Shown: positions 10,431 to 48,876, counted from the stretch's first letter. The stretch: DNA of 64,000 nt from Patescibacteria group bacterium (GCA_041665365.1 JBAYIY010000003.1:4260-68259); one strand, 5' to 3'. Notes: generated by a model not told the origin, from the letters alone. Translations and numbers: made by a program.

Positions 10431-10455
10431 AAAATAGGAAACAAATATAAATAAA

Positions 10456-10503
10456 CAAAACTAACGTAGGGGTAATTCATGAATTACCCCTACGTTAGTT
10501 TTG
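10456..10503. repeat. 48-bp perfect palindrome CAAAACTAACGTAGGGGTAATTCA|TGAATTACCCCTACGTTAGTTTTG; intergenic copy of the IHELPL palindrome family
   Basis: Read directly from the sequence; its 30-bp core is identical to the in-CDS copy at 54484-54525. Confidence 0.7.
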
Positions 10504-10522
10504 TGTCTCTACTGGTTTTGAT

Positions 10523-10602: not shown

Positions 10603-10905
10603 ATGGAATTACATACCAAACCAATTGTTGAGGATTTTATTCAAAACCTAGAAACGTCTACAATGGCTAAAGTTTCTAGAACAATTGATTTATTAGAAAA
10701 ATTTCAATACTCATTAGGAATGCCGCATAGCAAAAGAATTGGCCGTAATATTTTTGAGTTACGAATTAGAGGTAAACAGGAAGTCAGATTAGTTTATACA
10801 TTTAAAGATGATTTTATCATTTTGTTTTATGGATTTATTAAGAAATCTAATCAAATTAATCAACGAAACCTAAACAATATCTACCATTTATTTGACAGTT
10901 TATAA
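10603..10905 (+). CDS. type II toxin, RelE/ParE superfamily (HigB/Gp49-like)
   Basis: 100 aa; motif ..GRNIFELRIRGKQEVRLVYTF.DDFIILFYGFIKKS is typical of HigB/Gp49 toxins; an HTH antitoxin follows. Confidence 0.6.
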   Translation: MELHTKPIVEDFIQNLETSTMAKVSRTIDLLEKFQYSLGMPHSKRIGRNIFELRIRGKQEVRLVYTFKDDFIILFYGFIKKSNQINQRNLNNIYHLFDSL

Positions 10906-10929: not shown

Positions 10930-11199
10930 ATGGAATATAAGAAATTTAAAGAAAGAGTATTACGTGATCCTGAGGTAAGAAAAGCCTACGATGCACTGGG
11001 ACCAGAGTTTGCTTTAATTGAATCTTTAATCTCTAAACGTATAGCCAAACAACTCACTCAAACAGCTTTGGCTAAAAAAATTAACACTAAACAATCTGCC
11101 ATCGCTCGGTTGGAGTCTGGGAAGTATAATCCCAGTTTAGCTTTTCTGAATAAAGTAGCCGTAGCATTAGATACCAGAGTAAAAATAACTATTGAGTAA
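10930..11199 (+). CDS. XRE-family HTH antitoxin (HigA-like)
   Basis: 89 aa; HTH motif LTQTALAKKINTKQSAIARLESGK; immediately downstream of the toxin. Confidence 0.65.
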   Translation: MEYKKFKERVLRDPEVRKAYDALGPEFALIESLISKRIAKQLTQTALAKKINTKQSAIARLESGKYNPSLAFLNKVAVALDTRVKITIE

Positions 11200-15231: not shown

Positions 15232-15239
15232 AAAAAAAT

Positions 15240-15268
15240 GCACGGGACGAATAATATTCGTCCCGTGC
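15240..15268. terminator. bidirectional rho-independent terminator (14-bp perfect stem GCACGGGACGAATA / TATTCGTCCCGTGC)
   Basis: Flanked by an A8 run upstream and T-rich sequence downstream; lies between the convergent recA and 15294..15614. Confidence 0.65.
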
Positions 15269-15293
15269 ATTTATGCGATTTGCCGGTGTGGAT

Positions 15294-19257: not shown

Positions 19258-19431
19258 AAAAGTACATAAGTTAAATAATGGTATTAATATTGATATTTTT
19301 CGTCCTCAACTAACCAAGGTATACTCCTGAAATGGCAATATCATTTGGCTAATTGGAGATATTTTTCTTCTATCCCTTCGACAAGCTCAGGATTGAAAGT
19401 TCACACTGAGCGAGCGAAGCGAGTCGAAGTG

Positions 19432-19503
19432 TTGCGGGGGCGGGATTCGAACCCGCGACCTGATGGTTATGAGCCACCCGAGCTTCCACTGCTCCACCCC
19501 GCG
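19432..19503 (-). tRNA. tRNA-Met (anticodon CAT), initiator-like (C1:A72 mismatch)
   Basis: Reverse complement CGCGGGGTGGAGCAGTGGAAGCTCGGGTGGCTCATAACCATCAGGTCGCGGGTTCGAATCCCGCCCCCGCAA folds as a cloverleaf and closely resembles E. coli tRNA-fMet; CCA is not encoded. Confidence 0.8.
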
Positions 19504-28090: not shown

Positions 28091-28192
28091 AGACCTCTCC
28101 TCCCCAACCCTCCTCTCCTTCGTTAGGAGAGGAGGGAGTAAGAAAGAAAACCCCCTCTCCTTCTGAAGGAGAGGGGCAGGGGGAGAGGTCTC
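28091..28192. repeat. composite nested-hairpin repeat R1 (outer IR GAGACCTCTCC/GGAGAGGTCTC enclosing two hairpins and the AGTAAGAAAGAAAA motif)
   Basis: Related to 53382-53510 (the hairpin CCCCTCTCCTTCTGAAGGAGAGGGG is identical); overlaps the uvrD stop codon. Confidence 0.55.
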
Positions 28193-30230
28193 ATTCCTCT
28201 TGCACCAGTTCTTTGGGTATATCCTTTAAAAATCTCGATGGGGCAGTAATTTGAGTAGCCCCATAGACCGTGCGCTGGGCAGCATAAATAAAATAGGCAC
28301 GGCGCTTAGCACGAGTCAGAGCGACATAACACAAGCGGCGTTCTTCTTCCATTTCAGCGGGTTGAAAAATACTGCGGGCATGGGGAAACAAACCTTCTTC
28401 CATACCACAAATAAACACCGTATCAAATTCTAAACCTTTGGCTGCATGCACTGTCATCATATTAACCGCATTAGAGTCATCATTAACCTCGTCTTGATCT
28501 GACACTAAGGTGATATCTTCCAACATGGCTATAATACCATCGGCTCCTAATTTATTATCAAACCGTTTGGTCACCGATTTTAATTCATCAATATTTTCTA
28601 GTCGGCTCAAGTCTTCCGGTAATTTAGTATTATATTGATCTTTGAAGTGGGTTAGTGACACAATTAGATCTAATGATTCAGATGGCGTTAGGGTAGAAAT
28701 TTTTTGGTTGATGGTTTTCATTAGATTTTGAAATTTCAAAAATGCCTCATGTTGTTGGGTGCGTAGTTCAGGTAACGAATCAGGTGTAATGTCTAAATAG
28801 GTGACACCTAAACTGCGGCACTGGGCTTCAATTTTTTTCCAACTATTCGCACCCAAACTGCGCGCTGGTACATTCACAATTCGTTCCACACTCACCCAAT
28901 CTTGGGGGTTAACCACTGATCTTAAATATGCTACCAAATCTTTAATTTCCCGCCGTTCATAAAATTTAATACCACCAATAATGTGATACGGTATATTATA
29001 GCGTAAAAAAGTTTCTTCTAAGGCACGGGATTGAGCATTAGTGCGATACAGTAACACATATTTACGTAAATCAATTTGATGTAATTGTTTTTGAATCGTG
29101 CGTTGTAAAGAAAATGTTTGGCTGGACATGATTTTATCTAATATTCCCGGGGTTGGTTGGGCATCTTCATCAATATAATGTACCTCATCCTGTTCGGTGA
29201 CTGTTTGGGTGGGATTGAATATTTCTTGAATGATATATTCACCTTCTTGTTTTTCATCGCTCACGGCTTTGATGGTGATTTTGTGGCCGCGCTCATTGTC
29301 TGTCCATAGGGCTTTGTCTTTTTGTTTGACATTATATTTAATAATTTCATTGGCGGCTTCTAGAATATGTTGGGTGGATCGATAATTTTGCTCTAATAAT
29401 ATTACAGTGGGGTTTTTATAATCGGTTTCAAAATCCAAAATATTTTGTAGATTAGCACCTCTCCAACTATAGATGGATTGTGCATCATCCCCGACCACAC
29501 AGATGTTATGATATTTTTCCGCTAGCAGGTGGACTAATTTATACTGCGCCTGATTAGTATCTTGATATTCATCCACTAATATATAATGAAAAGCCTCTTG
29601 GTATTTTTTTAATACTTCAGGGTAGTCAGTAAAAATCCGCACAGTTAAACCAATTAGATCATCAAAGTCTAAAGCATTATGATCTTGTAAGGCCTTTTGG
29701 TAAGTGTTATAAACCCCGGCCGCCGTGCGTTCCATGACATTACCGGCTTGAGTGGAAAAATCGGCTGGGGAGATTAAATCATTTTTAGCTTGAGAAATCA
29801 TGTGTTTCATTAAACCTGGTGCAATCACTTTAGTATCTAGACCTTGATCTTTCATCACTTTTTTTATGAGAGAATCGGTATCTGCTGTGTCATAGATCAC
29901 AAAAGTCTTTTTGTAACCCAATGACTCTATTTCACGTCTAAGAATTTGGACACAGACCGAATGAAACGTTCCCATGATGGGATAATATTTAATCTTACTA
30001 CCCAAGAGTTTTTGTAAACGCGTGCGCATTTCTTTAGCTGCTTTATTGGTAAAGGTAACAGCTAAAATATTTTGTGGGGCGGCTTTTTTCTTGGCAATAA
30101 TATAGGCCATGCGGTGAATCAAAGTTTTAGTTTTACCGGAACCAGCGCCTGCCAAAATTAACACCGGCCCATCCGTGGCTTCCACCGCCGCGCGTTGTTT
30201 ATCATTTAATGAAGCTAACAATTCATGCAT
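28191..30230 (-). CDS. uvrD: ATP-dependent DNA helicase UvrD/PcrA family
   Basis: SF1 helicase motifs (..LILAGAGSGKTKTLIHR.., ..VTFTNKAAKEM..); 679 aa. Confidence 0.9.
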   Translation of the reverse strand: MHELLASLNDKQRAAVEATDGPVLILAGAGSGKTKTLIHRMAYIIAKKKAAPQNILAVTFTNKAAKEMRTRLQKLLGSKIKYYPIMGTFHSVCVQILRREIESLGYKKTFVIYDTADTDSLIKKVMKDQGLDTKVIAPGLMKHMISQAKNDLISPADFSTQAGNVMERTAAGVYNTYQKALQDHNALDFDDLIGLTVRIFTDYPEVLKKYQEAFHYILVDEYQDTNQAQYKLVHLLAEKYHNICVVGDDAQSIYSWRGANLQNILDFETDYKNPTVILLEQNYRSTQHILEAANEIIKYNVKQKDKALWTDNERGHKITIKAVSDEKQEGEYIIQEIFNPTQTVTEQDEVHYIDEDAQPTPGILDKIMSSQTFSLQRTIQKQLHQIDLRKYVLLYRTNAQSRALEETFLRYNIPYHIIGGIKFYERREIKDLVAYLRSVVNPQDWVSVERIVNVPARSLGANSWKKIEAQCRSLGVTYLDITPDSLPELRTQQHEAFLKFQNLMKTINQKISTLTPSESLDLIVSLTHFKDQYNTKLPEDLSRLENIDELKSVTKRFDNKLGADGIIAMLEDITLVSDQDEVNDDSNAVNMMTVHAAKGLEFDTVFICGMEEGLFPHARSIFQPAEMEEERRLCYVALTRAKRRAYFIYAAQRTVYGATQITAPSRFLKDIPKELVQEE

Positions 30231-30311
30231 AGACTGGATAGCATAGCATTACTTTAATTTCATTGACAAATTCACCCGATAGTATTAAATAATCTGACAT
30301 CTGGAGGGAAG

Positions 30312-30629
30312 ATGAAAGAAAAGAGGGGACGCGGTCGGCCTTCTATGGGCAATGAAGCCCGAAACGTCAACGCGGTGGCGAGAGTCACCGCAATGACGTT
30401 GGAAAAGGTTGACCAGGCCGCTGCAGCAGCCGGTGTGTCACGTTCCACCTGGATCGCCGACACCATCGAGCGGGCGTTGTACCCGCCCGTCGTCGGCGAA
30501 GATTGTACTGGGCTCCCGGGTGAGCCCGAGGACAATCACGTCGACCTTGGAGTCGACGTTTCAATTTGTGAGGGAGAGTGTATGGGAGAAGAAACTCCCA
30601 TTCGCTATCTTGATAATGATGAGGAATAG
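30312..30629 (+). CDS. ribbon-helix-helix (CopG/Arc-like) DNA-binding protein encoded in a GC-rich (~58%) foreign segment
   Basis: ..RGRPSMGNEARNVNAVARVTAMTLEKVDQAAAAAGVSRSTWIADTIERAL.. matches the RHH pattern; the frame was chosen on that basis because all six frames are open in this GC-rich stretch. Confidence 0.5.
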   Translation: MKEKRGRGRPSMGNEARNVNAVARVTAMTLEKVDQAAAAAGVSRSTWIADTIERALYPPVVGEDCTGLPGEPEDNHVDLGVDVSICEGECMGEETPIRYLDNDEE

Positions 30630-30677
30630 GCTTGGGTTGAGTACAAAACACTCCCCAAGCCTAAGTTACATAGTGTA

Positions 30678-30706
30678 TTGACACTGTCATGACAGTATGA
30701 TATGGT
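30678..30706 (+). promoter_or_regulatory. candidate promoter TTGACA-17-TATGGT with embedded 12-bp palindromic operator CTGTCATGACAG; positioned for a leaderless dinJ transcript
   Basis: Hexamers and palindrome read directly; start codon at 30713. Confidence 0.4.
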
Positions 30707-30712
30707 GGGTGT

Positions 30713-30997
30713 ATGAACAACATGGATACAATTCAAATTAGAATTGACACAAAAACCAAACAATCCGCTCAGCATGTGTTAGATGAGTTGGGATTAGATA
30801 TGACCTCAGCTATTCGGGTTTATTTAAAACAAATCGTTTTGCAAACTAGTTTACCTTTACGTTTGTTAACGAGTAATGGTTTAACACCAAATGAAGAGCA
30901 GGCTATTCTTGCCGCTTCAACTGAAGCGAAGACAGGGATGAATGTGACGAAACCAATGTCGGTTAAGGCAGCTCTAAAATATTTGGATACCTTATAA
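30713..30997 (+). CDS. dinJ: DinJ/RelB-family antitoxin
   Basis: 94 aa; ..IQIRIDTKTKQSAQHVLDELGLDMTSAIRVYLKQIV..SLPLRL.. matches DinJ; start/stop overlaps the toxin (ATAATG). Confidence 0.7.
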   Translation: MNNMDTIQIRIDTKTKQSAQHVLDELGLDMTSAIRVYLKQIVLQTSLPLRLLTSNGLTPNEEQAILAASTEAKTGMNVTKPMSVKAALKYLDTL

Positions 30998-31257
30998 TGT
31001 ACATTCAGTATCATAAAAAATTTGAGAAACGGTTTACCAAACTAACACCCCAACTCAAACAGAAAGTGAAAAAATGTATTGAACGGTTTGATCAAAATCC
31101 ATTTGATACCCAATTAAGGAATCATGCATTGACTGGAAAATTAATAGGTAAAAGAGCCATTTCTGTAATGGGTGACATGAGGATTATCTTTGAAGAGCAA
31201 AATAATTATGTTTTAGTTATAATGTTAGATGTCGGAACACATAATCAAGTTTATTAA
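30997..31257 (+). CDS. yafQ: YafQ/RelE-family mRNA interferase toxin
   Basis: 86 aa; ..HALTG...G.RA...GDMRIIFEE....VLVIMLDVGTHNQVY matches the YafQ C-terminus. Confidence 0.7.
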   Translation: MYIQYHKKFEKRFTKLTPQLKQKVKKCIERFDQNPFDTQLRNHALTGKLIGKRAISVMGDMRIIFEEQNNYVLVIMLDVGTHNQVY

Positions 31258-31268
31258 AAAATAAATAT

Positions 31269-31652
31269 ATGTACGACGATAACGACCCAAATATAACTTG
31301 GCAGGATCGGTGGGAAGGCGGCGCTCGAGAAGAACGTGTGCATTACCAACAAATGACACCAGATCAACTACTGCAGTGTCTGAACCAACATGATTTTGGT
31401 AGTTATTACAGTCTCTGGTATGTCATTGGAACACAAACCACGCAAGCTGATAAATTTATTTGGCCACTATATGACGTGATTGCCTCTTCGGCTGATTTTT
31501 TAACCCGTTATCATGCCGCTACTAATTTGGCTAAATTACTAAATTGGCCAGACGATCATTCCATTATTAAACAAATTAAATTAAGCCAAGAGCGCCCAAC
31601 TGTGGAGCTAGTAAGCAGTCTTAAAGAGGTATTGACACAAATACCCAAATAA
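31269..31652 (+). CDS. hypothetical protein
   Basis: ORF only; no recognisable motif. Confidence 0.3.
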   Translation: MYDDNDPNITWQDRWEGGAREERVHYQQMTPDQLLQCLNQHDFGSYYSLWYVIGTQTTQADKFIWPLYDVIASSADFLTRYHAATNLAKLLNWPDDHSIIKQIKLSQERPTVELVSSLKEVLTQIPK

Positions 31653-31673
31653 ACTAGTATCACCTCACTGTTT

Positions 31674-31898
31674 ATGAATCTTGCTTTGATTCTCTCAATC
31701 GCACAAGTTATCGTCGTCGTTATGCTGGTGGCAGCCGTGCTTTTGCAGCAAAAAGGCGTTGGGCTGGGTTCTAGTTTTGGTGGTGGTGATAGTGTGTTTA
31801 CGACCCGCCGTGGTCCTGAAAAAGTCATCTTTAATGCCACGATCGTTTTATCTAGTTTGTTCCTTGGGTTAGGCATTGCTGCCTTTCTTCTCCAATAG
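31674..31898 (+). CDS. secG: preprotein translocase subunit SecG
   Basis: 74 aa; two TM helices; ..LLQQKGVGLGSSFGGGDSVFTTRRGPEK.. is the SecG signature. Confidence 0.75.
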   Translation: MNLALILSIAQVIVVVMLVAAVLLQQKGVGLGSSFGGGDSVFTTRRGPEKVIFNATIVLSSLFLGLGIAAFLLQ

Positions 31899-31930: not shown

Positions 31931-33679
31931 ATGTCTGAAAATCGTCAATCACGATTAGTACTCGGTGTGCCTAAACGACGGCTGCCAACCATGGCGCAAT
32001 TGCGCTATATCAACAACTTACTAACCTTCAAACAACAAATCACAGTGTTGCTTTGTTCAGTTGTATTTGTGGCCGCATTAATTTTTATGGGGGTATATCG
32101 TTATTTAAGTACGACTCATGTTATACCTGAGTATGGCGGTTCATACGTGGAAGCGTTAGTTGGACAGCCACAATATATCAATCCGATTTTGGCGCAAACG
32201 AATGATGTTGATCAAGATTTATCACGCTTGATGTTTTCCGGTATGTTTAGGCAAACTAAAGAGCAGAAACTCGAACCTGATTTAGTCACCGCTTACACTA
32301 TTTCTGACGATCAACTAACTTACACTTTTACAATTCGGCAAGACGCTAAATGGCATGATGGTGAAGCGCTCACCGCCAGCGATGTTATGTTTACCATTCA
32401 AGCCATTCAGGATCCAAATTATCAGAGCCCATTAGAGTCAAGTTTAAGAGGTGTGCAAGCTGAGAAAGTTGATGACAACACTATCAAGCTAACCTTAAAA
32501 GAGCCATTTGCACCATTTTTATCTAGTTTAACTTTTGGTATTTTACCTGAACATATTTGGTTTGATGCTTACAAAGTATCTTCACAAAATATTACCCTAT
32601 CTGAATACAACATCAGACCGATTGGTTCTGGACCATTTATGTTTGATTCGTTAGTCAAAGATGGTAGCGGTGTATTAAAATCATATAAGTTAAAACCGTT
32701 TAAACAGTACTATGGTCAAAAACCATATCTCTCCGCGCTGAGTTTTTCATTTTATAGTGATTTAGATTCAGCCGAGCAAGCCTTACAGCATAAAGAAGTT
32801 GATGGCCTCGGTTTTATAACTCCAGAACAAAAAATTACACTACAAAATAAAGTAAATAATCTTAATTATTACCGTTTACAATTACCCCAATACACAGCGA
32901 TTTTCTTTAATCAAAAGAAATCTGATGTCTTAGCGTCTGACTCGGTGCGTCAAGCGATGGTGTGGGGAGTTGATCGTACCACTATTATTGATCAGGCTCT
33001 CAGTGGTGAAGGCGAGCCGATTTATACACCAATTTTACCGGGTTATTTAGGCTATAATACTGAAGTTGAAAAATATGGCTTTGATTTAGAAAAAGGTAAA
33101 CAAATCTTAGAAGACAATGATTGGAAAATACCAGAAGGTGAGCAATACAGAAAAAAGGGCGATCAAGTATTAGAATTTGGTATTGCCACAGTTAATCAAC
33201 CGGAATTTTTGGCGACACTTAAAGTGCTGCAAGATAATTGGGCAGCTATGGGCATGAAAGTAAACGTTAATGTCTATGAACCAGCCGATATCCAAGAACA
33301 GATTATCAAACCACGTGCTTACGAAGCGCTCTTGTTTGGTGCGATCATCGGGAGTGATCCTGATCCATATGCTTTTTGGCATTCCACGCAAATGTCTCAT
33401 CCTGGTTTAGCTTTGGCCGTGTTTTATCAAAAAAATATCGACGATTTATTGGAAACCGCGCGTAAAACCAGTGATGAAGAACAACGGCGGTTAAAATATT
33501 TTAACTTTCAAAACATTTTAGCAGAAGAAATTCCGGCCATATTCTTATACAATCCTTATTATACCTACGCTATGAACAATAGTGTTAAAGGTATCACTTC
33601 ACAATATATTTCACTACCCTCCGATCGGTTTGTGGATATCCTTAACTGGCATATCAAAACCAAACGGATTAAAAATTAA
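31931..33679 (+). CDS. ABC transporter substrate-binding protein, family 5 (oligopeptide/nickel-type), N-terminally membrane-anchored
   Basis: N-terminal TM anchor; ..NPILAQTNDVDQDLSRLMFSGMF.. resembles the SBP_bac_5 signature region; ~580 aa. Confidence 0.6.
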   Translation: MSENRQSRLVLGVPKRRLPTMAQLRYINNLLTFKQQITVLLCSVVFVAALIFMGVYRYLSTTHVIPEYGGSYVEALVGQPQYINPILAQTNDVDQDLSRLMFSGMFRQTKEQKLEPDLVTAYTISDDQLTYTFTIRQDAKWHDGEALTASDVMFTIQAIQDPNYQSPLESSLRGVQAEKVDDNTIKLTLKEPFAPFLSSLTFGILPEHIWFDAYKVSSQNITLSEYNIRPIGSGPFMFDSLVKDGSGVLKSYKLKPFKQYYGQKPYLSALSFSFYSDLDSAEQALQHKEVDGLGFITPEQKITLQNKVNNLNYYRLQLPQYTAIFFNQKKSDVLASDSVRQAMVWGVDRTTIIDQALSGEGEPIYTPILPGYLGYNTEVEKYGFDLEKGKQILEDNDWKIPEGEQYRKKGDQVLEFGIATVNQPEFLATLKVLQDNWAAMGMKVNVNVYEPADIQEQIIKPRAYEALLFGAIIGSDPDPYAFWHSTQMSHPGLALAVFYQKNIDDLLETARKTSDEEQRRLKYFNFQNILAEEIPAIFLYNPYYTYAMNNSVKGITSQYISLPSDRFVDILNWHIKTKRIKN

Positions 33680-35547: not shown

Positions 35548-36813
35548 TTATTTCAATGGATCAACCATTCTACCCATGAATAAAATATTTCCGCTTTGGT
35601 TGTCAAGAATAATAAAAACAAACGGATGATCAGCGCGAAACACCGGTATTTCAGTTTGTGCGGCTGACAATGACGTAGTTACACCAGTCGCAGCGGCAGC
35701 TTCAGTGCCGGCTTCATTTACATCAATAAACGCTTGATGAATGACCGATTGGATAAATAAATCTTTAGTTCCATCCATACCAGAAAAATCAGCGTTTGTA
35801 GAAAAAGCCGTTGGCATGCCCATGGCCTTTAAGGTGTCATTCAAAGTATATTTTGTATCCAGGGTGAATTTTGGTAGATAGACATCAACTAGTTGTTCAT
35901 TCAGGCTAGCTTTCCAAGCATCAAGTTGTTTTACAGAGAGTGATGATTCTAATATTGAGAGATCATTGGTTTTGGGTAGTAAAACCAACATCGATAATTG
36001 TTTACCTTGATAGGGGAGTTCAAGCACCTGAGTGGTAACATCAGCCACATAGCGAAATTTTGTTGCGGTGTTGGTTTGCTGCATCATGGGAACGCGCACA
36101 GTTTCAGTAGAGGAGATATTAAAATTCTCTTCGCTGGTGTCAGTTTGGTTAAACTGTGTTAACCACTCACCTTTAAAATATACCGCATTGGTTAATACCA
36201 ATTTGGTTATTTCAGAAATTGTACCATTCGGAAAAAGATCTTTAATTTTATCATTGGTTTTGTCTGCCACCCAGGTGTTAATAGTATTCCTGGATGCTTC
36301 TGGATTATTGGCAAAATCCAAATTGGTGGCTTCACCGCCAAAGTATTGGTGTACTGTATTTAAATAATCAGCCTGCAATTTATAATCTTGTTGTACCCAT
36401 AAAGCATTGGCGACATTAAATTGATAATCAGTGTTAGTAGTGGTCAGTCGATCATTCAGTGCTTGATAGGCAATGCGCCGATCAGTTTCATCAGTTGGAA
36501 ATTGAAAGACCGCTTGCATTTCTTTAGCAGTGTTACCTCGAGCGCCTTCATAAACCATGGCAAACGCTGTAGACAAACTATATGGGGAAAAGAACACATT
36601 ACCAGAATCATTTTTTAATTGATTATAAAGATTAAAGGCAAATCCATTATTTACATCAACCACGGCCGTAGCACAAGCCAAGGCTTTATTATTATTGGTT
36701 GTGGCACTGGGAGATTTAATAAATGGGTTGTTTTTACTAAAATAAATTAAAACATCAGCACAAACAATAGCAACTAGGGCAAGTACCATAATGACCAGAA
36801 TTTTCTTTTTCAT
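35548..36813 (-). CDS. serpin-family protease inhibitor with N-terminal signal anchor
   Basis: ..FFSPYSLSTAFAMVYEGARGNTAKEM.. and the C-terminal serpin signature ..FRADHPFVFIILD...GNILFMGRMVDP. Confidence 0.85.
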   Translation of the reverse strand: MKKKILVIMVLALVAIVCADVLIYFSKNNPFIKSPSATTNNNKALACATAVVDVNNGFAFNLYNQLKNDSGNVFFSPYSLSTAFAMVYEGARGNTAKEMQAVFQFPTDETDRRIAYQALNDRLTTTNTDYQFNVANALWVQQDYKLQADYLNTVHQYFGGEATNLDFANNPEASRNTINTWVADKTNDKIKDLFPNGTISEITKLVLTNAVYFKGEWLTQFNQTDTSEENFNISSTETVRVPMMQQTNTATKFRYVADVTTQVLELPYQGKQLSMLVLLPKTNDLSILESSLSVKQLDAWKASLNEQLVDVYLPKFTLDTKYTLNDTLKAMGMPTAFSTNADFSGMDGTKDLFIQSVIHQAFIDVNEAGTEAAAATGVTTSLSAAQTEIPVFRADHPFVFIILDNQSGNILFMGRMVDPLK

Positions 36814-36850: not shown

Positions 36851-36879
36851 TTGACGAAAGGGATTTTTTTTGCTACAAT
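36851..36879 (+). promoter_or_regulatory. candidate strong promoter TTGACG-17-TACAAT for the downstream giant surface-protein gene
   Basis: Hexamers read directly; they lie inside the first codons of the ORF-track call, which argues that the true start is downstream. Confidence 0.45.
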
Positions 36880-36901
36880 ACACCTTAATAATCCTTCAAT
36901 C

Positions 36902-39900
36902 ATGATTGTTTTGATCAAACAACAAATAAAAAACCAAGAAAACCAGCCCAGATCGATCTTTTCTGGTCTGTGGTTATTGTTAATGCATGTGTTATTGGGT
37001 GTTTATCACGTCATATTGATCATGTTTTTCCCGGCCAGCACCAGTTTTGCCAAAGTGAATGATTTATCTAGCAATGGGTATAAAACATCATATATAAGAC
37101 ACTGTCGTTTGCAACACAATGTTCGGTTCGGTACCTTAGCCTATTCACTGGTGTTGGTAACTATCATAACGATGATTCAGGCCACTGTCTCGATTATTAA
37201 CCCAGAACAATTTGGTCAATCAGCTTATGCCGCCACCTTTGAAGTAAACACAAATGAATTCACCAGTGACGGTAGTTGTGACCCACTAGGTGGCGGTGGT
37301 TTAGATTGTACTATCCGTGAAGCCATTGCTTTAGCTGGTCCAAATGACAGCATCACTTTTGATAATAATTATACTATTACTACAACTATCCCTCTTAATA
37401 TCTTGAATGCTGGATTAACAATTGATGGAGCCGCGGCCGGAGGAACGGTGACAATAAATTGTAATAATGTAGCCAATTTTGGTTTTGTAGTATCGGCTGA
37501 TGATGTTACGCTAAAAAATATTACAATCGAGAATTGCACAAATGACTCTATCATATTAAAAAATAGCGGTTTTTTAGTCGATGCCGTGACAGTATCGAGT
37601 GGTAATAATCGTGGTATTTATGTTGAACCTGCTGTAACTAGCGGTACTATCATGGGGAGTACATTAACTGAAAATCTAGTCGGAATTTTTGTGATAAATA
37701 GTTCTGGTCTTACTATTACGGGCAATACAGTTGAGCAGAGCACTTTGCAGGGTATGCAAATAAATGGTGTGACTGGTTCTGTCATCACCGCTAATACAAT
37801 AACCAACAATAGTGATGTTGGTCTTAGTTTATTACCGAACAGTGATAGCAATACTATTACTAATAATACAATTACCAATAATAGTGGTAGTGCCGGTTTA
37901 GCCATTGATACTTCAGACAGTAACTTGATTACTGGTAACACCATCACTGGTAACACAACGAGAGGGATGTATTTCACGAGTAGCTCTAATAATCAAGTAA
38001 GTGGTAATACAATCAGTGGAGCAGATGCTGTGGTGGTTGATGCTGGTTCAACTGATAATATCATTGGTGCCAGTTTAACTAGTCCGGATACGACGGGTAA
38101 TAACATAACTAGCACAACAGATGGTATTGAGTATATTAGTGCTACCACTAAGGACAACTATCATAGAAAAAATAGTTTCGTTTCTGTTGGAGCAAGTTTT
38201 GTTGCCAATACCAGTGGTGCCCAAAGTGATAGTTCAACTCCAGTAATTACTGCTTGGTATAATGATGGCATTTATGGTACAGCCAGTGCTGATAGTACGG
38301 TTGATATTTACGATGCAGCAAATTATATTACTAGCACTACAGCCAACTCAGCTGGTTTATGGTCGATCACAGATAGTTCATTATCTGAACAGACTACTCT
38401 GGCGGTGATGGCCACAGTCCAAGCTGCCGGCTCAAGTGATTTTGCTACTACTACAGCGCAAACTCCTTTAGCCATTTCTAGTGTTGTCACTGAGCCATCC
38501 ACTAATTTGGCTACAATCAGTTGGGGAACTAATTTGTTGGCAACCAGTACACTGCGTTATGCGCCGGCTAATGGTGGAGCCGAGGCCGTGACTGTCACCC
38601 TAGCTGATGCTAGTACTACTTTTAGTACAGCGTTATCTGGTTTAGCTCCAGCTTCACAATATGATTGTACCATTACCGGTACGGCTGAATATCTTACTGA
38701 TAATACAGCTAGTGGTGATTGTACTTTCACAACTAGCTCAGCTTCAGCGACCGAAACAACCTATGCTGATACGGTTGTAAAAAATGTGACTGTGATAGAT
38801 GCTTATGATAATCATACTACTATCACTGGAGCGGCTGATCAGAGTGAGATTTTTCCGTATGGTAAATTAACCTTTGTTTTTAAAGATACAGAGTTACAAT
38901 TAAATGATTACCGCTTACATTTTGTCTTACATGAAGCTAAGCAAAATGCGACCGATATTATTAATAAAAAGAAAGCCTTTGATAGTAATGGTCGAGCTGA
39001 GTTCAATGTCAAGAAACAACAACTAGCACTCGAAAAAACTTATGCCGTATTTTCTGGGTTAGTAGCTAGTAATGGGACGTATTTAAATACAGATGGCTTA
39101 GCTAGACAATTCACCTTTAGTTTAATTGACGCGCCACAATTATTAGCACCAAGTGAACGAGTTTACAATGGTATGCCAGAGCGATTTGTAGTGGCATCAG
39201 CCGCACCTAGCGTGACCGTATATTTAGAAAATCAGGCCGGTGTGGAGCAGTTTCATTGTACCGCTACTATGGTGGATAATGTTGGTGCCTGTACGCCACC
39301 CTTCGGTGTGGCCTTGGGGGATTATACTGTGCGTTTAGTTGATGCGCGCGGTGGTGTGGTCACAAAATCATTATATATTACAGCTCAAGCTCCCGATAAT
39401 GTTATCAACACAGATGATCGATCTGATAATTACAACAAACGTTTGATTACCACCGGTCAGCCAACCTTAGTTGGTATTATTCCAACTGGAGAAAAAGTTG
39501 AGATATCCATTCCGCAAATTAATGGTGCCATGTTAGCCGATGTGGCAGATAGTACCGGGCCAATCACGACCTGGTCATTCACTTTACGTTTAACCACTTT
39601 ACCATTAGGTGAAACCGATATTAAAGTGAATGATCAAACCATCTTAGTGTATCGTGTGCCTGGGGCGGTGCAACCAGCCGTGATTAGTCCAGATAATAAT
39701 AGTGCAGCACCAATTGCACCACGGATTCAAGTAATTAGTCCGGATGATCATGAATTAGAGATCTTGAACAGTGCCGGTGTGCAGCTGTTCAGAAATGGTT
39801 ATACCAATGGTGGTTTAGTAGTTGATTTACGTGCCTGGTATACCTTGCCTGGTACTTATACTATTACATTACGCAATCGTAATACTATAAATTTAATTTC

Positions 39901-40666
39901 TAAGAGTGTTTCTTTTACCTTTACTATTACCGCACCTGTTAGCGTGACAACTACCACGCCAGAACCAACCATAATTGAACCGATTGTAACTCCAATTACA
40001 ACTCCAATCGTAACTGAACCGATAGTTGATGTCGTTAAAGTTGAAACGGATTTACAACAAGTTGCCACAGAAACACAACAACCGCCAGTTTTTCCAACTA
40101 TTACTACGCAGCATGTTGTCGTCGACGATACCTTTAAAGCTTTAATCACAAAAGAAGTGAGTATCGGTACAGTGGTGGATTTTGCACCTGATGAAAACAC
40201 TGTTGTAACACCGGGAGAATTACCGATCATCACTCATACCGTGGAAGTATCACTTTGGGATTGGCTGACCGGTCGCACATCAACTTCAGTTGATAAAACT
40301 AACGTGGTGTTGTGTGGCACGGTAAAATTACCAGAGGAAGTGAAGACTGAGCCAGCCTATATGATTGTGTCGGTCTTTTCAGCACCAGTGGTAAAAATTG
40401 CCCAAGTTAATCATAACGGTCAGTGGAGTATGACGGTGCCGGCAGAATTATTAACCACGGGTGAGCATACCGTGTTTGCTGCCTTGGATGTAAATGGCAC
40501 ACAATCCGATCAAGTTGAAATTGCCCGGTTCGTGATTCAACGGCAACAACGTCTGTCGAATACAACTTGGTTAGTGATTATCAATGTAGTGGTGGTACTC
40601 ATTGCTGGATTATCTATTTGGTTGATTCGATTACGTCAGAAGCGAATGAATAATTCAACTTTATGA
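36902..40666 (+). CDS. giant surface protein: N-terminal signal anchor, right-handed parallel beta-helix repeat region, Ig-like domains, C-terminal TM anchor
   Basis: Repeats (NNTITNNSGSAGLAIDTSDSNLITGNTITGNTTRGMYF..) are typical of pectate-lyase-like beta-helices; C-terminal hydrophobic anchor plus basic tail (LIRLRQKR); the start at 36902 is uncertain. Confidence 0.5.
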   Translation: MIVLIKQQIKNQENQPRSIFSGLWLLLMHVLLGVYHVILIMFFPASTSFAKVNDLSSNGYKTSYIRHCRLQHNVRFGTLAYSLVLVTIITMIQATVSIINPEQFGQSAYAATFEVNTNEFTSDGSCDPLGGGGLDCTIREAIALAGPNDSITFDNNYTITTTIPLNILNAGLTIDGAAAGGTVTINCNNVANFGFVVSADDVTLKNITIENCTNDSIILKNSGFLVDAVTVSSGNNRGIYVEPAVTSGTIMGSTLTENLVGIFVINSSGLTITGNTVEQSTLQGMQINGVTGSVITANTITNNSDVGLSLLPNSDSNTITNNTITNNSGSAGLAIDTSDSNLITGNTITGNTTRGMYFTSSSNNQVSGNTISGADAVVVDAGSTDNIIGASLTSPDTTGNNITSTTDGIEYISATTKDNYHRKNSFVSVGASFVANTSGAQSDSSTPVITAWYNDGIYGTASADSTVDIYDAANYITSTTANSAGLWSITDSSLSEQTTLAVMATVQAAGSSDFATTTAQTPLAISSVVTEPSTNLATISWGTNLLATSTLRYAPANGGAEAVTVTLADASTTFSTALSGLAPASQYDCTITGTAEYLTDNTASGDCTFTTSSASATETTYADTVVKNVTVIDAYDNHTTITGAADQSEIFPYGKLTFVFKDTELQLNDYRLHFVLHEAKQNATDIINKKKAFDSNGRAEFNVKKQQLALEKTYAVFSGLVASNGTYLNTDGLARQFTFSLIDAPQLLAPSERVYNGMPERFVVASAAPSVTVYLENQAGVEQFHCTATMVDNVGACTPPFGVALGDYTVRLVDARGGVVTKSLYITAQAPDNVINTDDRSDNYNKRLITTGQPTLVGIIPTGEKVEISIPQINGAMLADVADSTGPITTWSFTLRLTTLPLGETDIKVNDQTILVYRVPGAVQPAVISPDNNSAAPIAPRIQVISPDDHELEILNSAGVQLFRNGYTNGGLVVDLRAWYTLPGTYTITLRNRNTINLISKSVSFTFTITAPVSVTTTTPEPTIIEPIVTPITTPIVTEPIVDVVKVETDLQQVATETQQPPVFPTITTQHVVVDDTFKALITKEVSIGTVVDFAPDENTVVTPGELPIITHTVEVSLWDWLTGRTSTSVDKTNVVLCGTVKLPEEVKTEPAYMIVSVFSAPVVKIAQVNHNGQWSMTVPAELLTTGEHTVFAALDVNGTQSDQVEIARFVIQRQQRLSNTTWLVIINVVVVLIAGLSIWLIRLRQKRMNNSTL

Positions 40667-48386: not shown

Positions 48387-48800
48387 GTGAGGGGGCGTTT
48401 TATGTACTTAAAAGAACCTACTCAAAATCAGATTAAATTACAACATAAACTACAATTGTTAGCACGTAAGTTACGAAATAATCCTACTCAAGCTGAAGTG
48501 GTGTTATGGAACAGATTAAAAGAAAAACAACTTGGTTGTAAGTTCAGACAGCAATATCCACTCTTTCAATTCATTGTAGATTTTTATTGTTCATCTCATC
48601 GATTAATCATTGAGGTCGATGGTTTAATCCATGAACAACAACGTGATTATGATCAGTTACGTGATCAGATAATGATGCGACATGGTTACTCAGTGATGAG
48701 ATTCGCGAATGCTGAAATCATGAATGATCTAGATAAGGTAATCGACAAGATTAAGGAGAAACTAAATGGATTTACCCCCTCACTGGAATTTACCCCCTAG
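48387..48800 (+). CDS. DUF559 domain protein (Vsr-like PD-(D/E)xK endonuclease fold)
   Basis: ..LARKLRNNPTQAEVVLWNRLKEKQLGCKFRQQYPLFQFIVDFYCSSHRLIIEVDG..HEQQRDYD..RD..GY.VMRF matches the DUF559 signature; the last 10 codons and the stop lie inside the MITE-like element. Confidence 0.75.
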   Translation: MRGRFMYLKEPTQNQIKLQHKLQLLARKLRNNPTQAEVVLWNRLKEKQLGCKFRQQYPLFQFIVDFYCSSHRLIIEVDGLIHEQQRDYDQLRDQIMMRHGYSVMRFANAEIMNDLDKVIDKIKEKLNGFTPSLEFTP

Positions 48801-48872
48801 CCCCCTTGCAGGGGGAATAAGATATTTAAACCACTTTTTCTTAGCCCCCTGCAAGGGGGTTGGGGGTAAAGT
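48769..48872. mobile_element. MITE-like ~100-bp hairpin-rich repeat, copy B
   Basis: About 90% identical to copy A; supplies the 3' end of the DUF559 ORF and lies between convergent stop codons. Confidence 0.6.
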
Positions 48873-48876
48873 TAGA

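Follow-up and report, generated by a model that had tools for sequence, protein, structure and literature searches.

INTRODUCTION

Type II toxin-antitoxin (TA) operons autoregulate their transcription via the antitoxin-toxin complex. Dedicated TA regulators are known in addition, such as omega in omega-epsilon-zeta and PaaR2 in PaaR2-PaaA2-ParE2, and omega is built as a ribbon-helix-helix (RHH) protein with a disordered N-terminal arm. DNA uptake and horizontal gene transfer have been documented in Patescibacteria, in which genomic islands are common and the genomes show more fluidity than expected from their size (PMC12455944), and Kerfeldbacteria have been reported to be strongly attached to their hosts (PMC7906910). 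The locus analyzed here is a small accessory islet between the genes uvrD and secG of a Patescibacteria group bacterium, located at positions 30,231 to 31,652 of a 64,000-nucleotide (nt) stretch of DNA (GCA_041665365.1 JBAYIY010000003.1:4260-68259), which is referred to as the “window” and from which all positions are counted. The islet contains an open reading frame (ORF) for a candidate RHH protein of 105 amino acids (aa), ORF105, a RelB/DinJ-YafQ/RelE TA pair, and the additional reading frame orf127.

With a probability of about 60%, this islet is a mosaic at a locus that varies repeatedly among candidate phyla radiation (CPR) genomes, the parts of which have separate histories, and a patch within ORF105 originates from an RHH gene of a high-GC mobile element. 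This reading is carried by the foreign composition of the patch and its boundaries, the RHH fold, the relatives of ORF105 on high-GC mobile elements, the families of the TA proteins, the insertion compared to the ancestral synteny, and the integrity of the assembly.

RESULTS

A GC-rich patch within ORF105

The mean GC content of the window was 40.9%. The maxima were 65.3% for 150 nt at position 30371, 62.9% for 240 nt at 30323, and 59.0% for 300 nt at 30300, and the respective runner-up values across the 64 kb were 57.3%, 54.2%, and 52.7%. A likelihood scan of the GC content with two boundaries located the foreign segment to positions 30325 to 30558 (Table 1). A previous description made from the sequence alone, the original prediction, had mentioned a gene with ~58% GC in a ~38% GC genome. 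The peak was indeed real and the most extreme one of the window, but the actual figures were 56.6% for the complete ORF105 (30312 to 30629) and 40.9% for the window.

To evaluate the codon usage, 33 long native genes served as reference (GC content at the third codon position [GC3], 0.345 ± 0.031), and 5,000 back-translations were simulated for each protein. Codons 5 to 83 of ORF105 displayed a GC3 of 0.671 compared to 0.395 ± 0.052 as expected from native codon usage (z = +5.3), a value reached in none of the 5,000 simulations, in agreement with the predicted preference for codons ending in G or C. The total GC content of these codons was 0.629 compared to an expected 0.538. Thus, part of the GC excess comes from the amino acid content, but with a GC3 beyond all simulations using native codons, the codon choice is clearly non-native. 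In the frame of ORF105, the GC content at the second codon position was lower than that at the first and third positions.

The last 22 codons of ORF105 (30561 to 30626) possessed a native-like GC3 of 0.27, as anticipated from the described return of the last ~80 nt to an AT-rich composition. These 22 codons, dinJ, yafQ, and orf127 all resembled native genes in their codon usage (z-scores of GC3 between −1.25 and +0.07). This indicates that the foreign DNA is a sub-gene patch and not the whole islet, and the atypical composition within the islet is confined to positions 30325 to 30558. A chimeric junction, as postulated before, fits to the foreign composition of codons 5 to 83 only, flanked by a native-like Shine-Dalgarno sequence, start codon, and 22 terminal codons, while acquisition of the islet as a single unit does not agree with the native codon usage of the other three genes. 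The statement that all six frames were open had to be dropped, since only the +0 frame was free of stop codons within 30312 to 30560 and the other five contained one to three stops each. A second copy of the patch was not found in the 64-kb window.

ORF105 with its exact 105 aa and the same neighbors was also present in two Logan assemblies, on a 20.7-kb contig of run SRR6484324 and on a 3.0-kb contig of run SRR18595301. Over 12,468 bp for SRR6484324 and 3,025 bp for SRR18595301, the identity with the window was 100%, and both assemblies span the two flanks of the islet. Moreover, ORF105 was found on contigs of 138 to 180 kb from NCBI, JGI, and ENA. Identity of 100% in independent assemblies across both flanks excludes a misjoin, so that the chimeric assembly regarded before as a possible refutation of the islet was not confirmed in either of the two SRA runs.

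ORF105 as a ribbon-helix-helix protein

The ATG of ORF105 at position 30312 is preceded at a distance of 3 nt by the Shine-Dalgarno sequence GGAGGG at 30303 to 30308. The public NCBI protein MFA6474968.1 (94 aa) begins instead at an internal methionine at window position 30345 (MGNEAR...) and loses by this the RGRGRP arm common to all homologs, whereas the 105-aa form has been called by JGI, Logan, and ENA. The conserved arm upstream of the start of the 94-aa protein, together with the GGAGGG sequence, makes the ATG at 30312 preferable as start codon.

A word-indexed protein search with ORF105 retrieved only ORF105 itself. An exhaustive phmmer search against 1.84 billion representatives resulted in nine matches with E ≤ 1e-3, three of which (P0002, P0005, and P0008) were noise coming from repeat proteins. 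These large Ig/PKD/EGF-repeat proteins aligned only to the tail residues 55 to 97 and were rejected as relatives. P0007, P0009, P0006, P0004, and P0003 were retained, and a profile search performed afterwards added P0012 to P0015. ORF105 and these relatives have the motifs RGRGRPS-G-[DE]ARNVN-VR[VL]T and AAAAAGVSRSTWI in common, and P0003 and P0004 reach about the cutoff of Pfam RHH_1 (20.4 and 22.6 bits, respectively).

In an AlphaFold2 model based on a small alignment, residues 21 to 56 of ORF105 were predicted with a local confidence score (pLDDT) of 85 to 94 as an extended segment followed by helices at residues 27 to 40 and 44 to 56, which corresponds to the strand-helix-helix topology (~40 to 45 residues) of the RHH superfamily, and residues 60 to 105 were disordered. 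All of the top Foldseek matches in PDB, the top 40 or more, were RHH proteins, namely, CopG, Arc, MazE of Mycobacterium tuberculosis, Rv0298, NikA, AmrZ, AtaR/TacA, and ParG. The core superposed with a root mean square deviation of 1 to 2 Å over ~37 residues and TM-scores of 0.6 to 0.78 normalized to the target, whereas the Foldseek E-values lacked significance owing to the shortness of the domain. A profile search in PDB yielded AtaR/DUF1778 and CopG, and a PHROG family of transcriptional repressors matched with E = 9e-4. Other matches remained below the thresholds, such as those to NikA-like (E = 0.028, 15 versus 27), VapB (E = 0.013), and YlcI/YnfO (E = 0.019). As judged by the predicted fold and the homologs, ORF105 is an RHH protein at the level of the fold, and this supports its previous assignment as CopG/Arc-like, although the Pfam threshold was missed.

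Two other derivations of ORF105 were rejected. It is not a duplicate of DinJ, because the two proteins do not align, and its tail is not a remnant of the partner genes located downstream of the RHH genes in the relatives, since tblastn revealed no similarity.

Relatives of the patch and the donor class

Every detectable relative of ORF105 was located on a contig with 65 to 74% GC, and the GC3 of the respective genes was 0.79 to 0.89. The gene for P0009 resides on a phage-like 50-kb contig (L003) together with those for a serine recombinase, a baseplate J protein, and a Mu gp48-like protein, and the baseplate protein has a distant similarity to its counterparts in SfV and Mu-like phages. The RHH gene of P0006 (L008) overlaps an ORF scoring above the threshold of Pfam Phage_integrase, and those of P0007 and P0012 overlap a conserved gene for an uncharacterized 248-aa protein. 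NikA-like matches were obtained for P0009 (E = 3e-5) and P0004 (E = 9e-4). These phage-like or integrase-adjacent contexts in high-GC DNA indicate that the family belongs to mobile elements of high-GC bacteria.

No homolog of ORF105 was present in CPR or low-GC genomes among ~15 billion proteins, including the Logan assemblies, and there was no relative among the viral contigs of IMG/VR. Searches of phage and plasmid collections with tblastn and blastn gave no meaningful match to the patch at the DNA level. Best matches in equally low-GC relatives, which had been named before as an observation speaking against a transfer, did not occur, and every detectable homolog came from high-GC DNA. Together, these sequence comparisons support a high-GC donor class for the patch.

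The spacer between uvrD and secG

In two distant CPR genomes (loci L027 and L029), uvrD and secG are divergent neighbors about 67 to 78 bp apart, with a TTGACA-N17-TAATAT promoter in front of secG. The gene order secG-SBP-RNaseJ is kept in more than 10 CPR loci. In the window, the gap between uvrD and secG contains a cargo of 1.44 kb, composed of ORF105, the RelB/DinJ antitoxin, the YafQ/RelE toxin, and orf127. Other genomes carry something else at this position: 830 bp with a fragment of an IS200-like Y1 transposase (L015, 5361 to 5654), 2.7 kb of unrelated genes (L031, 2939 to 5643), or a HicA toxin directly upstream of secG (L022, 2 to 175). The UvrD protein of the window is 76 to 77% identical to those of “Candidatus Kerfeldbacteria” metagenome-assembled genomes, the lineage to which the bacterium is assigned, and in the closest Kerfeldbacteria the uvrD side is rearranged, with a TrmB-like regulator as neighbor.

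Homologs of ORF105, DinJ, YafQ, and orf127 were absent from the loci L011 to L037. In L019, with a SecG 85% identical to that of the window, orf127 and the TA pair were missing within 970 nt upstream of secG, and orf127 was likewise absent upstream of secG in L022. The reading frame orf127 had no match in Pfam, NCBIfam, or PHROG and retrieved only itself among 5.8 billion clusters. Comparison of the DNA at the islet edges with that upstream of secG in L019, L021, and L022 revealed no similarity beyond the conserved promoter hexamers, the two edges did not share a sequence of 8 nt or more, and the defense models of PADLOC gave no credible match. The 81-bp spacer between the divergent uvrD and ORF105 also contains a promoter-like site on the minus strand (30269 to 30240), a putative promoter.

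The synteny comparison between uvrD and secG, as proposed together with the original prediction, thus reveals an ancestral gap of ~67 to 78 bp and varied cargo elsewhere. With uvrD and secG adjacent in L027 and L029 and the four ORFs absent from all relatives fetched, an accessory islet is indeed present. The comparison suggests that insertions occur preferentially in the divergent promoter region of uvrD and secG, as a hot spot conserved among CPR genomes.

Two side observations were made at this locus. The region upstream of ORF105 (30256 to 30311, TTGACA-AATTCACCC-GA-TAGTAT) loosely resembles the secG promoter at 31624 to 31673 (TTGACA-CAAATACCC-AAATAAAC-TAGTAT). Possibly, the original promoter of secG was split or duplicated by the islet, but the resemblance is very short. 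Second, L011 and L013 (CAZSXL010000058.1 and CAYZUI010000173.1) are titled “uncultured Gammaproteobacteria bacterium,” and their UvrD proteins are 76 to 77% identical to that of the window, with the neighboring genes being the same as in the Kerfeldbacteria metagenome-assembled genome L014. Both records are probably mislabeled or misbinned.

The TA pair and its putative operator

Directly behind ORF105, the predicted DinJ antitoxin and YafQ toxin were found, both passing the cutoffs of their families (RelB/DinJ and YafQ_toxin, Table 1), and their genes overlap by 1 nt (TAATG) at position 30997. An alternative start of the antitoxin at 30722 leads to a 91-aa protein, as called in other assemblies. 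The antitoxin missed the threshold of the stricter equivalog model for Escherichia coli DinJ, NF008412 (32 versus 96), and the toxin that of the strict YafQ model TIGR00053 (40 versus 87.25 bits). The nearest solved structure of the toxin is Helicobacter pylori HP0894. In the alignment with this protein, the histidine of “HAL.G” and the C-terminal “G[ST]H” are kept, and the middle histidine of “ECH” is replaced (“AIS”), so that the catalytic His/Asp/His set of YafQ in the strict sense is incomplete. Failure in the strict YafQ model and the missing middle histidine make “YafQ/RelE superfamily” the safe name for this toxin. Its nearest annotated plasmid-borne matches, with 35 to 43% identity, are RelE/StbE toxins from Cyanobacteria and Alphaproteobacteria.

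The original prediction had located a perfect 12-bp palindrome into the promoter of the pair. This sequence, CTGTCATGACAG, is present at 30684 to 30695, occurs once in the window, and extends to the perfect 14-mer ACTGTCATGACAGT at 30683 to 30696. By analogy with related operons, the 14-bp palindrome is likely the DinJ/YafQ operator. The −10 element ends 6 nt before the ATG of the antitoxin gene at 30713. Due to this short distance, the mRNA should be leaderless or nearly so, or the start at 30722 is used, or the genes are in addition transcribed by read-through from ORF105.

A chain of hairpins

The region 30300 to 30640 folded far better than its dinucleotide shuffles, with z-scores of −5.7 and −6.8 for the two strands, a property that the original prediction had not mentioned. 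In 120-nt segments covering 30281 to 30700, the z-scores were about −2 to −6, except for 30401 to 30520 (−0.1 on the plus strand and −1.7 on the minus strand), compared to a coarsely sampled background of −0.3 ± 1.3 over the whole window. When the pieces were folded separately, the GC patch reached −4.2 and −5.9 and the AT-rich region 30559 to 30700 reached −7.1 and −4.1, so that GC heterogeneity was rejected as the cause of this signal. The signal was absent from the RHH genes of the relatives (−0.4 to −2.75) as well as from dinJ, yafQ, orf127, and secG (−0.9 to +0.8). A search with Rfam 15 at gathering thresholds found nothing in the whole window besides one tRNA, and in the region 30150 to 30800 there was nothing even at E ≤ 10. 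Possibilities for the hairpins (H1 to H6 in Table 1) are remnants of the 3′ untranslated or terminator region of the donor, protein-binding inverted repeats, or a structure that stabilizes the mRNA.

Table 1. Features of the islet and its flanks, with positions in the window
Feature	Position	Strand	Remarks
uvrD	28191–30230	−	UvrD/PcrA helicase, 679 aa; Pfam UvrD domains; native left flank
Divergent intergenic spacer, 81 bp	30231–30311		TTGACA at 30263–30268 (+); Shine-Dalgarno sequence at 30303–30308; about the length of the ancestral uvrD/secG spacer
ORF105, chimeric gene, 105 aa	30312–30629	+	Basic N-terminal arm RGRGRPSMGNEARNVN; predicted RHH core, residues ~21–56; acidic, disordered tail, residues 60–105
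Foreign-composition patch, 234 bp	30325–30558	+	63.7% GC versus 39.2% in the surroundings; ORF105 codons 5–83; maximum-likelihood GC segment
H1 hairpin	30363–30400		Inverted repeat
H2 hairpin	30454–30499		Inverted repeat
H3 hairpin	30501–30537		Inverted repeat
H4 hairpin	30538–30559		Terminator-like (terminator scan); its end coincides exactly with the 3′ edge of the GC patch
H5 hairpin	30574–30609		Inverted repeat
H6 hairpin	30627–30663		Perfect 10-bp stem; extends across the stop codon of ORF105, shortly upstream of the dinJ −35 site
Promoter-like site TTGACA-N17-TGnTATGGT	30678–30706	+	Palindrome fills the 17-nt spacer; TGnTATGGT at 30701–30706
RelB/DinJ-family antitoxin, 94 aa	30713–30997	+	Pfam RelB, 43.3 versus 22.4 bits (E = 3.5e-11); TIGR02384, 63.7 versus 45.65
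YafQ/RelE-superfamily mRNA interferase toxin, 86 aa	30997–31257	+	Pfam YafQ_toxin, 37.1 versus 30; TIGR02385 RelE_StbE, 39.3 versus 27.9
orf127, strain-specific orphan ORF	31269–31652	+	Last codons run into the secG promoter; native-like codon usage
secG promoter TTGACA-N17-TAGTAT	31632–31660	+	Same arrangement before secG in L019, L022, and L029; right edge of the islet
secG	31674–31898	+	Pfam SecG and TIGR00810; native right flank
SBP_bac_5 gene	31931–33679	+	After secG; RNase J gene next

Other features of the window

A second TA-like pair was present in the window, consisting of a Gp49/HigB-like toxin at 10603 to 10905 (Pfam Gp49, E = 6e-15) and an XRE-type helix-turn-helix antitoxin at 10930 to 11199 (HTH_3, E = 6e-12). 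Ahead of this pair, a near-perfect 64-bp palindrome at 10448 to 10511 (32-nt arms, 91% complementary) was the most strongly structured spot in the scan of the window, with z-scores of −7.1 and −6.5. A perfect intergenic palindrome at 15236 to 15272 with 18-nt arms (AAATGCACGGGACGAATA/TATTCGTCCCGTGCATTT) had z-scores of about −6 on both strands, and an intergenic inverted repeat of G/C tracts at 48787 to 48873 with 29-nt arms had −5.2 and −4.0. Neither of the latter two had a match in Rfam; both probably act as terminators that separate convergent or neighboring genes. A few kilobases downstream of the islet, a serpin-family gene (35548 to 36813, 421 aa, Pfam Serpin) is located beside that for a 1,271-aa NosD/beta-helix protein (36851 to 40666), an unusual cargo for a small CPR genome.

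DISCUSSION

Origin of the islet

The mosaic origin of the islet would have proceeded as follows. A 234-bp fragment of a gene for a small RHH regulator, residing on a mobile element such as a phage or an integrative element of an unsampled high-GC bacterium, may have been taken up as foreign DNA and then inserted by illegitimate recombination. It would have been fixed in frame behind a native-like Shine-Dalgarno sequence and start codon and read on through 22 native-like codons, so that the predicted product is a chimera in which a basic arm at the N terminus precedes the DNA-binding RHH core and the acidic, disordered tail. Provided that it is expressed, the protein may form a dimer, as RHH proteins do with a two-stranded antiparallel sheet that inserts into the major groove, and bind DNA as a small repressor, or it may be an orphan antitoxin-like protein; we infer this activity and its target. 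The RelB/DinJ-YafQ/RelE operon would be independent of this event, with its native-like composition and an own promoter, and its complex may repress its own synthesis via the 14-bp palindrome, by analogy with DinJ-YafQ and RelBE. The reading frame orf127 would be an orphan passenger.

Evaluation of this origin needs to consider several observations that weigh against it. No integrase or transposase gene, tRNA target, flanking direct repeat, or target site duplication was found at the islet, and the only tRNA gene of the window at 19431 to 19503 is located away from it. ORF105 remained below the gathering threshold of Pfam RHH_1 (PF01402) with 14.9 versus 20.5 bits (E = 0.026). The GC3 of the patch (0.67) is below that of the relatives. 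The nearest homologs are only ~45 to 48% identical over ~55 aa, and phmmer assigned them E-values between 3e-4 and 8e-4 in a search of 1.8 billion sequences. Of the proposed recent acquisition from a high-GC donor, the donor class persists, with all homologs on contigs of 65 to 74% GC, but with homologs being so distant, “recent” was overstated. No polymorphic copies of ORF105 were found, the independent assemblies being 100% identical and thus uninformative on purifying selection (ratio of nonsynonymous to synonymous substitutions). The promoter scan yielded no more sites than shuffled sequences. Finally, a mosaic islet does not account for the chain of hairpins, and the terminator-like H4 is located inside ORF105. 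If H4 terminates transcription, the mRNA ends before the stop codon of ORF105.

Alternative explanations

It is rather unlikely, although to be considered seriously, that ORF105 is a non-functional remnant of captured foreign DNA, which stayed open because GC-rich DNA contains few stop codons. The RHH ancestry would be real, but there would be no working protein. As calculated from the base frequencies, 79 stop-free codons at 63% GC are expected in ~10% of the cases, and the other frames of the patch contain only one to three stops. The tail of residues 60 to 105 has no homolog and is predicted to be disordered, the terminator-like H4 ends inside the ORF exactly at the 3′ edge of the patch, the first ~7 residues present in the relatives are missing from ORF105, and the islet harbors with orf127 another orphan ORF. 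A mere remnant does not explain, however, why a good Shine-Dalgarno sequence, GGAGGG, is positioned at a distance of 3 nt from an ATG with which the conserved RGRGRP arm comes back into frame, nor why the whole RHH core is intact and modeled with high confidence, and the sequence was unchanged in assemblies from different runs.

ORF105, DinJ, and YafQ may also form a three-component TA system, with the RHH protein acting as dedicated transcriptional regulator. All three genes are located on the same strand, and only 83 bp separate ORF105 from dinJ. In this gap, H6 with its 10-bp arms and the 14-bp palindrome could be sites for such a regulator, and the layout of ORF105 as an RHH protein with a disordered N-terminal arm matches that of omega. 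Nevertheless, the composition indicates that ORF105 and the TA pair do not share a common origin. None of the relatives of ORF105 adjoins a RelB/RelE pair, their neighbors being an integrase, the 248-aa protein, and phage genes. DinJ is itself an RHH autoregulator with an own promoter-like site, and ORF105 has no similarity to DinJ. A system of three components is therefore very unlikely.

Similarly small is the chance that the region 30325 to 30700 is above all a structured RNA or else a DNA element of stacked hairpins, such as a regulatory RNA or a site for replication, transfer, or recombination, and that the ORF is secondary or coincidental. Islands of high GC content in AT-rich genomes frequently represent structured RNAs. 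The folding signal would agree with such an element, since it was strong in the GC patch as well as in 30559 to 30700, was sustained over ~400 nt against the window background, and was not found in homologous and neighboring genes. Yet, there was no match in Rfam even at E ≤ 10 and no second copy in the window, and protein homology together with the RHH fold already accounts for codons 5 to 60. The hairpins were about equal on both strands, indicating DNA palindromes rather than a strand-specific RNA.

A patch that has never been transferred, being a native gene with a GC content raised by a sequence rich in alanine, glycine, arginine, and proline or by a local mutational bias, or else an assembly chimera, is effectively refuted: the amino acid content alone lifts the expected GC content to 0.538 and explains ~60% of the amount by which the patch exceeds the mean of the window, but not a GC3 beyond all simulations, the relatives are all high-GC with none in CPR or low-GC genomes, ORF105 is absent from the uvrD/secG locus of related genomes, and the sequence is identical in two SRA runs as well as on the NCBI, JGI, and ENA contigs.

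A possible host origin of the patch

Within the mosaic origin of the islet, the donor might be the high-GC host of the Kerfeldbacterium itself or a prophage of this host, with the DNA being taken up via the competence machinery and fixed in frame. The chain of hairpins between 30325 and 30700 could then be a functional part of the captured element, for instance, a structured RNA or a recombination site. This extension is unlikely. The relatives of ORF105 are located on mobile elements and not in chromosomal core regions, and the lack of a closer homolog among the ~15 billion proteins including Logan speaks mildly against an abundant donor assembled from the same samples. If true, the patch would be a physical record of gene flow from a host to its epibiont and a molecular clue to the identity of the host. 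Foreign patches might serve as markers for tracing hosts if the donor could be named.

Comparison with known systems

The gene transfer at this locus is real but fairly ordinary, neither the TA pair nor the RHH fold goes beyond textbook knowledge, and the density of the hairpins is the sole puzzle. The islet provides a clean and well-bounded case of foreign DNA of sub-gene size fixed in a streamlined CPR genome, at a uvrD/secG spacer in which TA modules and remnants of transposases have accumulated repeatedly in different CPR lineages. It fits into the published picture of fluid Patescibacteria genomes and does not change it.

The predicted core of ORF105 superposes at 1 to 2 Å on the CopG/Arc/MetJ repressors and the RHH domains of antitoxins, such as CopG, Arc, MazE6, Rv0298, AtaR, and TacA. 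Like the type II antitoxins MazE, VapB, and AtaR/TacA, ORF105 is small and combines an N-terminal DNA-binding module with a disordered C-terminal tail. It differs from both groups by scores below the Pfam and NCBIfam thresholds and by its basic RGRGRPS-G-xxARNVN arm, which was found only in a very small, high-GC family. In contrast to type II antitoxins, no cognate toxin comes after it, and its tail is a native-like read-through and not a conserved toxin-binding segment. The RHH proteins of relaxosomes, NikA and MobC, are a further group for comparison, since ORF105 weakly matches NikA-like in Pfam and the N-terminal fragment of NikA, 2ba3, is among the fold matches. Here, the difference is that neither the islet nor the examined contigs of the relatives provide a relaxase or oriT context and that all scores are below the gathering threshold.

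The TA pair shares with E. coli DinJ-YafQ and the type II operons of the RelBE family the order of antitoxin before toxin, the overlap of stop and start codons, and a palindrome within the promoter. The toxin differs from E. coli YafQ by failing in the strict NCBIfam model and by replacement of the histidine in “ECH.” As in the genomic islands of Patescibacteria (Gios et al. 2025, PMC12455944), the islet carries strain-specific cargo at a variable locus, with regulators, TA-like genes, and a partly atypical composition. Compared to these islands, it is far smaller (1.4 kb, with a patch of 234 bp) and devoid of a mobility gene, and its foreign part is a sub-gene piece fused in frame to native-like ends.

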